Virus record (IMG/VR): IMGVR_UViG_3300029825_000007
Location: 1,374-65,373 of that record
Source of the DNA: a virus
Length of the DNA stretch: 64,000 nt
Reading direction: 5' to 3' (one strand)
Positions 21,384 to 24,929 of this stretch are shown piece by piece (positions within the stretch are counted from its first letter, which is position 1; every line of letters starts with the position of its first letter). The translations under genes were made by a program, and so were the position numbers. A model generated the notes under the pieces. The model saw nothing but the letters and a program-made list of their open reading frames with translations, was not told the origin of the DNA and searched no databases.

Positions 21384-23093
21384 CTAGAATGGTGAATGCA
21401 TAATTGTAGTCTTGACTGTGAAACCGCCCTCTATGAACCGCTCAAGCTGTACCAGACCATCAGGAGAATCATCATGTTCATTCTTGCCAATCTGAACAAA
21501 CATGCACAACTCATCTACAGCCTTGTTGTATTCGTCAGTACGCATATAACGTTTTGTTTCTTGATCATCTTTTCTCTTTAATCTCTGTAATTCATAATTC
21601 GCTTTCAAGAAAATAAATCTCCGTTTGATATCACCAGAATACTGAATGATTTTTGCCATCTTAGCCATAGTGTTTGGGGCTTTTGTACTTGTCACACTGC
21701 ACTTGTATCCATCTTGTTCCAAAAGCTCATCTATCTTATCAGCGTACATATTACCGCCGTTATTAGCTTCAAAATTGATCTGCTGAATTTCATATTCTTT
21801 TATTTTACCTGCGACTAATGGTAGAGTAGTTTCTTTCGGTCCTGCATTGAATATCCAATCAACGATGTAAACGTCACCGTTCTCGTATTCAAACCCAATA
21901 GGCATGGACAATGAATCACCACCACCCCACGCCACATCACACGCACTTACAGCCCTCACAAATCCACTTTCTGGTAATACACCATTAAAGAATCGTAAAT
22001 CATCTTCTGGGAATAACAATCCTTCTCTTACGAATGGTCTCTGCTGGTATTTTGCCATCCATTCATTTTTATCAAGTCGGTCTCTCATATCCAGATAATA
22101 TTTTGTTGAGAATCCGCAGCCATACATATAATCAAAATTTGATTCATCATTTTCATTTAATGCAGGGATTTTTCTAAACCGGTAATTTTTATCATTCTTA
22201 TGCTCTTTTTCAACACGGCCTAATGGGTCTATGACATTCCATCTTGTACCGACCATTAATTCCCTGGCTCCATCTTTTTTACGGTCTACAAGGATATTTA
22301 AATAGTCCTGATACCTATTCTCTAATCGCCTAGGGTTTAAAGATTCTTCACGGTCACGGACTAAATCATCCACATACAAATATCCATCAGGTGATATATC
22401 TACAGCACCTGTCCATGTTCCTTCAATTCCTCGACAAGTCAGAGTTGCAAATCTATCAGGGTCACCCAATGTGATTTCTTTCTTTTCTGCTGATTTATTT
22501 GTAATGTTTCCGACTTCTGGAAATATTTCATGAAACGTGTATTCCTCTGTATTAATCAAATTAAGCATTTCACCGTAAAATCCATCCGCTAATATTCCGG
22601 AGTGTCCGGACATAGCATTGTGGCTGTTAGGACGCTTGCCCAGTATCCATGATAAGAAAAATATACACAGAGTGCTCTTGCCCACGCGGCTTGCAAGAGA
22701 CAATCCATAGAACTCAATTGCCCTATCTTCCAAGTCCTGCAAATCATTTACAACTGTCTTTAATGTTTTCTGTCTCGGCAAGTAAAATCTCTTTCTGGGA
22801 TCTCTGTTCTTCTCCATGTAAATCAAGTATGATTCAAATTTATCCCTTGATTCGAACAGCAAACACTGATAATACAGATCAAGAAACTTTTGGTCTTTTG
22901 TATCACTTGTCAATCTAACAGCCCATTGTTTTACAAAACCAGATACCTTATAGCAATATTCTTTTTCGTTCGGATAATCTTGTTTCATGTACTGTGCAGA
23001 TGATAATAATGCAAGCAGCACTTTATATTCTGGTCTCGTTCCTAATCGCTGTTTTAACGCATTTATCCTTTTTTGATGCTCAATTAACTGCAT
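21384..23093 (-). CDS. terL: terminase large subunit
   Basis: 569 aa. It has a Walker A-like motif (SRVGKST), an acidic Walker B-type motif (LYVDDLV), and the size and position of a terminase with a nuclease C-domain. Confidence 0.8.
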   Translation of the reverse strand: MQLIEHQKRINALKQRLGTRPEYKVLLALLSSAQYMKQDYPNEKEYCYKVSGFVKQWAVRLTSDTKDQKFLDLYYQCLLFESRDKFESYLIYMEKNRDPRKRFYLPRQKTLKTVVNDLQDLEDRAIEFYGLSLASRVGKSTLCIFFLSWILGKRPNSHNAMSGHSGILADGFYGEMLNLINTEEYTFHEIFPEVGNITNKSAEKKEITLGDPDRFATLTCRGIEGTWTGAVDISPDGYLYVDDLVRDREESLNPRRLENRYQDYLNILVDRKKDGARELMVGTRWNVIDPLGRVEKEHKNDKNYRFRKIPALNENDESNFDYMYGCGFSTKYYLDMRDRLDKNEWMAKYQQRPFVREGLLFPEDDLRFFNGVLPESGFVRAVSACDVAWGGGDSLSMPIGFEYENGDVYIVDWIFNAGPKETTLPLVAGKIKEYEIQQINFEANNGGNMYADKIDELLEQDGYKCSVTSTKAPNTMAKMAKIIQYSGDIKRRFIFLKANYELQRLKRKDDQETKRYMRTDEYNKAVDELCMFVQIGKNEHDDSPDGLVQLERFIEGGFTVKTTIMHSPF

Positions 23094-23516: not shown

Positions 23517-23711
23517 TCACATCTCCTCTGCATTACTCCATGATCGTTCTGGAATACATACATTAAACTCTTTCTTGCAATTACTTCCTTTACATTTTAG
23601 AGATAAATTATGTATAACAGTTTTACTATTAATTTTTAGATTCTTTTTTCCACAATATGGACATGTAACCCATTCTTCTTCATTTTCATCAAACTGAATT
23701 CTGCCTAACAT
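23517..23711 (-). CDS. zinc-ribbon protein
   Basis: It has CPYCGKK...C..SNC cysteine pairs. 64 aa. Confidence 0.4.
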   Translation of the reverse strand: MLGRIQFDENEEEWVTCPYCGKKNLKINSKTVIHNLSLKCKGSNCKKEFNVCIPERSWSNAEEM

Positions 23712-23769
23712 CAGATTATCTCCAATCTATAATTGCATTTTGTATACATTAAATATTAAAAAATAAAAA

Positions 23770-23862
23770 TCAGACTGGCAAGATTCGAACTTGCATCTTA
23801 GAGAATATAAGGAGTGGAAGATTGAAAATTCTCTACGCTTTTCCTAATTAAGCTACATTCTG
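23770..23862 (-). tRNA. tRNA-like module 1 with an expanded anticodon arm
   Basis: The minus strand reads CAGAATG-TA-GCTT-AATTAGGA-AAGC-G-TAGAG(AAT)...(ATT)CTCTA-AGAT-GCAAG-TTCGAAT-CTTGC-CAGTCTG-A. The acceptor, D and T arms are canonical, but the anticodon position holds an 8-bp stem with a 21-nt loop. Confidence 0.55.
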
Positions 23863-23951
23863 TTAGTGACGGGAACGTTTCTCAGGGTTGTTCTTTAACC
23901 GCCACTGTTGCAGTTCATTTGTATTTCCCACCAACCACAACAAAGGGATAA

Positions 23952-24023
23952 CTGAGATAGTTGGACTCGAACCAACAACTTCCTGATTAACGGCCAGGCG
24001 TTCTACCATTGGACTATATCTCA
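23952..24023 (-). tRNA. tRNA-Asn(GUU)-like
   Basis: TGAGATA-TA-GTCC-AATGGTA-GAAC-G-CCTGG-CCGTTAA-TCAGG-AAGTT-GTTGG-TTCGAGT-CCAAC-TATCTCA-G. 72 nt, no encoded CCA, position 33 is C instead of U, and there is one D-stem mismatch. Confidence 0.65.
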
Positions 24024-24026
24024 TTA

Positions 24027-24565
24027 TTACAAACATGATTAACGTTTCCGCTTATTCCCTATAGATTCAATCATATTCGATCACAGTGATGACAAGTCTG
24101 AACTTTCGGGAGCTACCCTAGGCTTCTTGCCACGGTCGAGCACTGGGAGGATTGACTACCTCCAAATTTCACGCATCATTCAGATTATATGTTTTCCATC
24201 ATATGGTATTTGCTGATTGCGCTACTTTAACATTCCGACTTGTGTTATACTCGCATTTCTGCGATTCACAGCAAAAATAATGGCTTATTGGAAATTCCTG
24301 TCTAGTCCGTAGTCTTCCGCACCACTCACATCAACAGGTTATTCTTCCACAGGAAGCGTCTATTGTGCCACCCACAAGGGAACTATCTTTGATTACTCTA
24401 TAATGATACACTGCATGATTTTGTTGTCGGATTCCCGGCTTCTGTCTGACATTCGCATATCAGTCAAAGAATCATCAAGCAAGTATCCCAACTTGACTTT
24501 TCTCAATTCCATACATCTCGGAGTGGATGTTACCCATTTATGCACCGAGGTAATCATGTTTGTAA
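24027..24565 (-). ncRNA. large structured RNA domain (ROOL/GOLLD-class candidate)
   Basis: There is no credible ORF, and the region is visibly more G+C-rich than its flanks. 24027-24041 (TTACAAACATGATTA) is perfectly complementary to 24551-24565 and closes a domain of about 540 nt. Local hairpins lie at 24146-24163, 24251-24264, 24344-24356 and 24517-24549. The domain is flanked on both sides by tRNA(-like) genes. Confidence 0.5.
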
Positions 24566-24660
24566 AAAGAACAGTAGGGTTTGAACCTACAACTCACTGC
24601 GACTTACATTTATCAACCGATATGCACAGTGTGTCTAACTCCTCTATGAGTTATGTTCCT
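24566..24660 (-). tRNA. tRNA-like module 2 (non-canonical core)
   Basis: It has a 7-bp acceptor stem (AGGAACA/TGTTCTT, one G-U) and a canonical T arm (GTAGG-TTCAAAC-CCTAC). The D position holds a 6-bp stem (TAACTC/GAGTTA). The anticodon position holds a CACTG/CAGTG stem enclosing 27 nt, which includes a TATC-GGTT-GATA hairpin. Confidence 0.45.
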
Positions 24661-24929
24661 TTGATTCCGGGCTATGTGGATTTTATATCGCTGCTTGCGG
24701 GATGAATAGTTACGCTGATGCAACGCCCGGATATTGTATCAGAAATTCCTACCGGACCTTGTGACGGTCCTTTAATCAGCATTCCGCTAGTAGGGAAAGG
24801 AGGTCTTCTAAATGAACACCGCATAATCTATCACTGCAATTCACGGTATGTAGAAACTAGAAGATGTGAATGTGATAGAAAGTAGTGAGTAGTGGAATTG
24901 CACCACCTTTAACTACGTCTCACTAAAAT
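24661..24929 (-). ncRNA. further structured non-coding segment contiguous with the RNA locus
   Basis: No ORF is present. Helices include CCGGGC (24668-24673)/GCCCGG (24725-24730), the GGACC-TTGTGAC-GGTCC hairpin (24764-24780), and GTGAG..TAG..TGG-AATTGCA-CCA..CTA..CTCAC (24886-24923). Confidence 0.35.

Follow-up and report, generated by a model that had tools for sequence, protein, structure and literature searches.

The subject of this study is a cluster of RNA genes in a bacteriophage represented by IMG/VR virus record IMGVR_UViG_3300029825_000007. The DNA analyzed, hereafter the window, is 64,000 nucleotides (nt) long, spans positions 1,374 to 65,373 of that record, and covers nearly all of a 65.4-kb phage record that is complete and has terminal repeats. 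On the minus strand of the region at 23770-24660, Rfam and ARAGORN searches together with predicted folds placed, in order, an element that we call module 2, a ROOL RNA, a tRNA-Asn gene, an 89-nt spacer and an element that we call module 1. A reading made before any database search (the sequence-only reading) had placed three tRNA-like elements on this strand, two of them with greatly expanded anticodon arms, and had noted that none encodes CCA. Their strand and positions were recovered by Rfam, ARAGORN and R1, a scaffold covariance model built from the aligned elements of 26 relatives with no window sequence and with acceptor, D and T pairs only, and the sequence that follows each of the three elements indeed lacks an encoded CCA. 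Along the RNA strand, the order runs from a structured motif upstream of module 2 through the cluster and a T-rich tract to small open reading frames (ORFs) and terL, as listed below, where L188 is the locus of the closest relative examined (TerL 75%).

24724 to 24802 (approximate limits), minus strand: structured motif upstream of module 2, with 78% identity to L188:1556-1633 (fold of the region, z = -2.6)
24566 to 24660, minus strand: module 2, a tRNA-derived, non-decoding element (fold; R1 30.8 bits, E ~2e-5), with discriminator U at 24566
24022 to 24573, minus strand: ROOL RNA, full length (RF03087, cut-off 99.1 bits; score 345.5 bits over model positions 1-574)
23952 to 24023, minus strand: tRNA-Asn(GUU) (ARAGORN; Rfam tRNA 62.4 bits), whose 5' end abuts the ROOL 3' end
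23863 to 23951, minus strand: spacer with two hairpins (fold), conserved with L188 (blast, 69% over 81 nt)
23770 to 23862, minus strand: module 1, a tRNA-Ile(UAU)-type scaffold (Rfam tRNA 47.3 bits; fold; R1 49.7 bits)
23752 to 23769, minus strand: T-rich tract (TTTTTATTTTTT) directly after the module 1 discriminator
21384 to 23093: terL, downstream of the small ORFs, with the portal and major head genes next

Module 1 aligned to all 71 positions of the Rfam tRNA model (RF00005; gathering cut-off 29 bits, which module 1 and tRNA-Asn pass), with 27 nt in place of 7. In its minimum-energy fold, the anticodon stem-loop is replaced by an 8-bp TAGAGAAT/ATTCTCTA helix with a 21-nt C/U-rich loop. Whether described as 27 nt between 5-bp strands or as an 8-bp stem with a 21-nt loop, this arm does not form the canonical 5-bp/7-nt anticodon stem-loop, and both the alignment and the fold bear out the expansion proposed in the sequence-only reading. 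The same reading had given module 1 perfect acceptor, D and T arms; the D and T arms are as described, but the acceptor stem is paired at 6 of 7 positions, with an A5-G68 mismatch that Rfam marks. A relic of an ordinary loop, CTTATAT, which is the loop sequence of tRNA-Ile(UAU), adjoins the 3' strand of the stem, and this placement suggests that module 1 arose through an insertion of ~18 nt on the loop's 5' side. To read the loop itself (CACUCCUUA) as an anti-Shine-Dalgarno sequence would be speculation.

The center of module 2 measures 47 nt versus ~23 nt expected, and it too is without a canonical 5-bp/7-nt anticodon stem-loop. The fold of the element is a cloverleaf of four arms, the central one long (z = -2.7; 3 of 200 shuffles fold equally well). 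The fold and the R1 match confirm the parts that had been described by eye: a 7-bp acceptor stem (AGGAACA/TGTTCTT), a D arm (ACTC/GAGT) that reaches 6 bp when U8-A9 is counted and whose loop has no GG, a T arm (GTAGG-TTCAAAC-CCTAC) and a central CACTG/CAGTG stem enclosing 27 nt. ARAGORN made no call for module 2, and Rfam gave no tRNA match even at E up to 10. Over the whole window R1 returned three matches only, namely module 1, tRNA-Asn (47.7 bits) and module 2, and all three share a 7-bp acceptor stem (with the one A-G mismatch in module 1), a TTCRA T loop and a D arm.

The ROOL RNA meets its neighbors with no intervening sequence. Its closing helix P1, seen as an inverted repeat, pairs 24551-24568 with 24024-24041 (17 of 18 bp) and is flush with module 2 on one side and tRNA-Asn on the other, with a 0-nt linker at each; the 3' strand of the module 2 acceptor stem overlaps ROOL model positions 1-7. 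Searches with TerL gave 56 viral, 56 metagenome and 10 genome loci for comparison, and 14 of the viral records carry ROOL, which with the window makes 15 clade loci. At all 15, the end of a tRNA-shaped gene falls at model positions 6-8 of ROOL, and a discriminator and U-rich run come after it. These ROOL-adjacent elements always have an intact T arm and acceptor stem, and the middle is variable. A canonical 7-nt loop is present in three of the elements at the ROOL 5' end, which are tRNA-Trp(CCA) at two loci and tRNA-Gly(CCC) at one, while nine have a 12-15-nt C-rich loop, two (L081 and L082) have a 76-nt structured insert in which a C-G pair has changed to U-A in compensatory fashion, one (L072) has a single hairpin between the acceptor and T arms, and that of the window has the 47-nt center of module 2. 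The tRNA or tRNA-like bookends of ROOL thus recur in related phages.

A pattern scan supplied 24 further ROOL loci from unrelated phages, and tRNAs lie flush with ROOL in several independent lineages, at its 5' end in L116-118, L119 and L124 and at its 3' end in L116-118, L121, L123 and L124; the ROOL 3' end of L125 carries a 118-nt expanded tRNA-like element. An IMG/VR scan with the ROOL core pattern GTGGNNGNCACAATAGACG yielded 12 loci, none of which has ROOL or a tRNA, and these were set aside as chance matches. Other RNAs were also seen beside ROOL in unrelated phages: 81-nt matches to the whole tmRNA model that comprise the tRNA-like domain only (L119:2173-2253; L120:56-136), full phage tmRNAs (L108-L111, L113/L115) and skipping-rope RNA (L116-L118, as at L116:800-964). 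At two loci, a tRNA lies inside the variable linker of ROOL itself (L121:1856-1927 within ROOL 1501-2096, Rfam 53 bits; L122:1668-1740 within ROOL 1501-2094, 51 bits). In cryo-EM structures the variable ROOL linker lies inside the cage. In the papers that we consulted, embedded tRNAs are mentioned for GOLLD only.

Both modules are assigned to one tRNA-derived scaffold family, of acceptor type CGGAAyG and related to tRNA-Ile(UAU), and the acceptor stem of each is at most two changes from CGGAACG. The family comprises 30 distinct sequences (61 loci in all) in the terS-terL RNA cluster of a group of Lachnospiraceae phages. Its central length ranges from 19 to 58 nt, with six members at the canonical 23 nt, eight at 19-22 nt (mostly 6-nt loops) and 16 at 32-58 nt. 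Among the seven acceptor pairs, six show compensatory changes on both sides of the pair, as do four of the five T-stem pairs. The TTCRA motif of the T loop is kept in the window elements and in all 15 ROOL-adjacent elements, an agreement that is partly independent since the scan demanded the motif.

At the position of module 1, after a leader with the motifs AAAGAAC ... CTAAC, relatives carry tRNA-Ile(UAU) or tRNA-Ile(AAU), or an element with the 6-nt loop GCAAGA, and L188 has another 6-nt-loop form. At the L188 locus, a canonical tRNA-Phe is accompanied by the upstream motif, the spacer and the 6-nt-loop element, and ROOL is absent; a second relative, L132 (TerL 78% match), is without the upstream region. 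The top half of module 2 is most like the 6-nt-loop element at L188:1854-1921, relative to which module 2 has ~24 additional loop nucleotides. Comparison with homologous loci had been set beforehand as a test of the expanded arms, and since ordinary tRNAs or 6-nt-loop forms occupy the homologous positions, the particular expansions of the window are best regarded as lineage-specific rather than conserved features.

In two sets of examined loci, 40 of 254 and 19 of 93 ARAGORN calls, respectively, are non-canonical. The 6-nt loops seen were GCAAGA, UUACAA, UUAUGA and UUUGAU, several of which resemble ordinary loops minus position 32, and the loop GCAAGA stays constant while its stem compensates (CCAGC/GCTGG versus CCAAC/GTTGG). 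Genes of this 6-nt-loop kind were found at L028:2098-2168, L031:2396-2466, L041:2751-2821, L016:1802-1872, L139:1882-1954 and L188:1854-1921, and in L014 and L197. A subfamily with expanded loops (L015:3970-4053; L038:3525-3611; L152:102-188; L137:2436-2519; and L196:1342-1425, from a Faecalicatena contorta isolate) has a self-complementary GUGUACAC, GUGCAC or GGUGCGCACC, then AAAAC, then GAGAG. This arrangement, a GUG-(UA/-/CG)-CAC palindrome with AAAAC and GAGAG, is kept on three different acceptor sequences, and a palindrome kept with different centers could be a site of loop-loop dimerization.

What role might these elements have? The interpretation that we favor, with moderate confidence, is that modules 1 and 2 are non-decoding tRNA relics that are kept as marks for processing by RNase Z and RNase P and as stable ends. 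Insertions of roughly 18-27 nt would have enlarged the anticodon arm in this phage and left the acceptor, T and D arms intact. The cluster would be transcribed as one precursor comprising the upstream motif, module 2, ROOL, tRNA-Asn, the spacer and module 1. Host RNase Z would cut after the discriminator of the CCA-less module 2 to give the ROOL 5' end, RNase P would cut at the 5' end of tRNA-Asn to give the ROOL 3' end, and module 1 would have the same role at the border with the message for the downstream small ORFs and terL. Both enzymes recognize only the elbow and the acceptor/T-arm half, which leaves the anticodon arm free to shrink, grow or vanish, as it does across the relatives. A passage of PMC8549757 that cites Pellegrini 2003 states that, in Firmicutes, RNase Z cleaves precursors without CCA immediately after the discriminator, and a tRNA-like domain with a 7-bp acceptor, that of YrlA, is cleaved by RNase P and has CCA added to it even without an anticodon arm (PMC4201824).

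A tRNA-shaped element that abuts a longer RNA with 0-nt linkers and in the same register at 15 of 15 loci is the arrangement by which we would recognize a tRNA-like processing signal. Five features fit tRNA relics kept as such marks and as stable ends, both for ROOL and for the border with the late mRNA: flush geometry, a fixed register, U-rich trailers, top halves that are kept and an anticodon arm that varies freely. Of the options offered in the sequence-only reading, the one that fits best is RNase P/Z signals by which the large RNA is released: the large RNA is ROOL, its P1 helix is flush on both sides, and cleavage at these borders would be the step that the arrangement predicts.

Several observations weigh against this interpretation. 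Co-transcription of the cluster and cleavage at the modules are both steps that we infer. The flush layout is not universal, since no tRNA lies within 45 nt at about half of the more distant ROOL loci, and the homologue of module 1 in L188 stands in a locus that lacks ROOL, so at least module 1 is not ROOL-specific and its lineage is independent of ROOL. The pairing percentages of the scaffold family are inflated because the scan demanded paired stems, and only the compensatory changes carry weight. In addition, the insertions make tidy helices, such as the perfect 8-bp stem of module 1, unlike random damage, and the expanded or 6-nt loops of other phages are conserved in sequence with compensatory changes in their stems. 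These patterns hint that some inserts may have a function of their own beyond the processing model, and the non-canonical arms are too frequent and too tidy for simple decay. For that reason, we retain as the main rival a scaffold whose inserts are functional.

According to this rival, which we regard as possible but unlikely, the elements are natural tRNA scaffolds in which the top half serves processing and stability and the enlarged anticodon arm is the working part. That part could act as a decoy for, or sponge of, anticodon nucleases or other tRNA-binding defense proteins (decoys for defense nucleases had also been among the options of the sequence-only reading), or it could be a dimerization or pairing loop, or a cargo or tether for the ROOL cage. 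Non-canonical loops in 24 of the 30 distinct family members argue for such a scaffold, as do the palindromic subfamily on its three acceptor sequences, the constant GCAAGA loop over a compensating stem, the compensatory change in the 76-nt L081/L082 insert and the perfect helix made by the module 1 insertion. A fast-changing anticodon arm on a conserved body would also be the outcome of an arms race with anticodon nucleases, a hypothesis raised for phage tRNAs (PMC10264068). Against it, no homologue of the window's own inserts was found beyond near-identical contigs, and no nuclease or partner protein was recognized beside the cluster. Nor did the inserts show more complementarity to the phage genome or to ROOL than shuffled loops do: the longest perfect complements to the module 1 and module 2 inserts in the phage genome are 10-11 nt, no longer than those of shuffled loops, and an 8-nt match between the module 1 loop and ROOL position 224 is within chance.

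Taken further, this proposal would have gut-Clostridia phages keep natural tRNA scaffolds in which the anticodon arm is a swappable slot for small functional RNA modules, a generalization that we offer tentatively and consider improbable. It is similarly doubtful that the slot contents are palindromic kissing or dimerization loops, defense-nuclease decoys, or ROOL nanocage cargo or tethers, with modules 1 and 2 as two loaded scaffolds. We would also not expect, although it is conceivable, that the flush position at ROOL reflects a functional partnership beyond shared processing.

A somewhat less probable explanation is that the modules are plain pseudogenes, dead tRNA genes in neutral decay with no role left. 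The sequence-only reading had listed decayed tRNAs among its options, and as an account of origin this is sustained by the ordinary tRNAs and 6-nt-loop forms in relatives; as a full account we do not favor it. The insertions are lineage-specific, with normal tRNAs at homologous positions, and module 2 no longer scores as a tRNA with Rfam or ARAGORN, all of which speaks for decay. Decay should strike the top half as well, however, and the top half is unaffected: the acceptor and T stems are kept paired through compensatory changes across the family, and TTCRA is kept in the window and in the 15 ROOL-adjacent elements (with the partial independence noted above), as is the ROOL register at all 15 loci.

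We think it very unlikely that the tRNA-like modules stay covalently attached and decorate the ROOL cage in the manner of the tRNAs embedded in GOLLD (bioRxiv 10.1101/2024.12.08.627333; PMC12990946). The zero linker between P1 and the flanking acceptor stems and the tRNAs within the ROOL linker of L121 and L122 speak for attachment. ROOL constructs alone form cages, however (10.1101/2024.12.08.627333), and the flanking genes include canonical Trp, Met, Thr and Asn tRNAs, which need release to work. Module 1, moreover, is separated from the rest by 89 nt and is present without ROOL in L188, and for this element the suggestion in the sequence-only reading of a structural mimic belonging to the large RNA does not fit.

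Least credible of all is that the modules are functional tRNAs from which short introns are removed by splicing: ARAGORN can model module 1 as an intron-bearing tRNA and the CTTATAT relic resembles the tRNA-Ile(UAU) loop, but the anticodon so assigned is unstable (Glu(UUC) in one run, Ile(UAU) in another), module 2 is without any recognizable anticodon loop, and we know of no bacterial machinery for such short tRNA introns. A group I intron is self-splicing, ~200 nt or more, and identifiable by a match to Intron_gpI; RF00028 was not matched in the window and the inserts are 18-27 nt, so the judgment in the sequence-only reading that they are too short for a bacterial group I intron was correct. 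An intron of archaeal or eukaryal type was set aside as well, since the perfect 8-bp helix of module 1 is uninterrupted with a single loop, and no bulge-helix-bulge motif was seen in the fold, although no dedicated search for the motif was made. We also considered whether the module stems are inversion sites of the neighboring serine recombinase and found no matching inverted repeat pair.

The tRNA-Asn between ROOL and the spacer has a canonical 5-bp/7-nt anticodon stem-loop with the loop CCGUUAA, and the C at position 33 that had been read from the sequence is confirmed by the Rfam alignment. The same loop is found in all five Asn genes of the ROOL-bearing relatives, on a stem sequence different from that of the window. 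Across the wider TerL-related loci, seven Asn genes have C33 and nine have U33, and one of the U33 genes has the same stem as C33 genes. C33 is therefore no one-off error but a trait that recurs, and is polymorphic, within this group of phages. Among 219 otherwise canonical tRNAs of the TerL-related loci L014-L069 and L132-L197, 18 have C33 (Asn 7, Arg 9, Val 2). The tRNA-Asn is probably still a working tRNA despite C33. Phage tRNAs with changes in the anticodon loop have been proposed to evade host anticodon nucleases (PMC10264068), and C33 in Asn, Arg and Val tRNAs fits the likeness that such loops deviate from those of the host; a tie between C33 and nuclease evasion would be speculation. 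The tRNAs of that study carry point changes in working 7-nt loops, whereas the elements described here have 18-76-nt insertions or 6-nt loops that abolish decoding.

Additional features accompany the cluster. The ~80-nt motif upstream of module 2 can be written CCUAC-UAGCGGAAUGCUG..AAGGACC-GUCACAA-GGUCC-GUAGG, and its closing helix becomes CCUCA/UGAGG in L188, which amounts to two compensatory pairs; the motif at 24724-24802 had no match in Rfam. The RNA cluster may begin with this motif, which may represent a further small structured RNA or a regulatory leader. The spacer motifs AAAGAAC and CTAAC are common to the leader of the Ile-type element in relatives, as judged by alignment and by a listing of flanks. 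The T-rich tract after module 1 could be a trailer that favors RNase Z or the end of the RNA operon.

Upstream of the cluster are a resolvase-type recombinase and terS, and the neighbors recognized were the resolvase, DUF6275, a sub-threshold Cys_rich_KTR zinc ribbon and terS/terL; no RNA-processing or tRNA-repair gene was recognized beside the cluster. The zinc ribbon is a 64-aa protein encoded by the first ORF after module 1 (23517-23711, minus strand; Cys_rich_KTR 24.4 bits against a Pfam cut-off of 25.5). Relatives by TerL are prophages of Faecalicatena, Lacrimispora, Acetatifactor and other Lachnospiraceae, window DNA was found again in fermentation metagenomes from three studies, and the host of the phage is placed among gut or fermenter Clostridia. 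Related prophages with scaffolds of this family are present in Faecalicatena contorta isolates (L191 and L196, the latter with an expanded-loop form) and in Lacrimispora xylanisolvens DSM 3808 (L197); no ROOL was seen in these, a direct ROOL search having covered L188, L189 and L197. When the whole locus was compared by blastn with cultured phages, the tRNA-Asn part alone matched, and no cultured relative of the modules was found. Contigs of three other studies carry the module 1, tRNA-Asn and module 2 elements, which are therefore not assembly artifacts. In a variant contig (run X7), module 1 is identical, module 2 has a single T-loop change and ROOL has 12 substitutions. The same contig keeps ROOL and both modules and has the tRNA-Asn and spacer (window 23871-24021) swapped for 161 other nucleotides; that the break points fall at element borders suggests an exchange of cassettes.

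Non-translating tRNA shapes that mark RNase P and RNase Z cuts and set the end of a long RNA are known from MALAT1 mascRNA, plant mitochondrial t-elements and mitochondrial tRNA punctuation. All of those belong to eukaryotes or organelles, whereas this is a bacteriophage RNA cluster in which cleavage is predicted from the arrangement. Among phages, the tRNA clusters of T4 (rnaC, rnaD) and T5 include small structured, partly tRNA-like RNAs that are presumably co-processed with the phage tRNAs; these are phages of E. coli without ROOL, and the likeness is one of description only.

A structural likeness within bacteria is to YrlA and the bacterial Y RNAs (RF02553; PMC4201824), which combine a tRNA top half of acceptor, D and T arms with another helix in place of the anticodon arm; RNase P and the CCA-adding enzyme both act on YrlA, which is also found in phages (PMC4201824). 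The present phage differs in that its replacing helix has no identified Ro-binding motif and it has no Rsr/TROVE gene. We set aside a link to Y RNAs, since RF02553 was not matched at E up to 10 and PF05731 (TROVE) was not matched in the complete phage record.

For ROOL, formation of RNA-only nanocages is known from cryo-EM (bioRxiv 10.1101/2024.12.08.627333), and its occurrence near tRNAs was already known (PMC5737381; 10.1101/2024.12.08.627333; PMC12990946). The window agrees with those accounts in having a full-length phage ROOL that adjoins tRNA genes, the RNA being described as 'often near tRNA islands' (RF03087; Weinberg 2017, PMC5737381). The ROOL papers that we consulted differ in mentioning only proximity and possible co-transcription, and in the literature that we searched we did not find the zero-linker geometry or fixed 5' register, the non-decoding tRNA-derived neighbors or the scaffold family.

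The comparative pattern described here, with a fixed 5' register, no linkers and neighbors that keep the half read by RNase P and RNase Z, provides a concrete, testable model for ROOL maturation. A substantial fraction of what are called 'tRNA genes' in this group of phages is unable to decode, which matters for censuses of phage tRNAs and for arguments from codon usage. If it is true that the inserts function, the family would amount to a natural version of the tRNA scaffolds engineered for RNA expression in bacteria.

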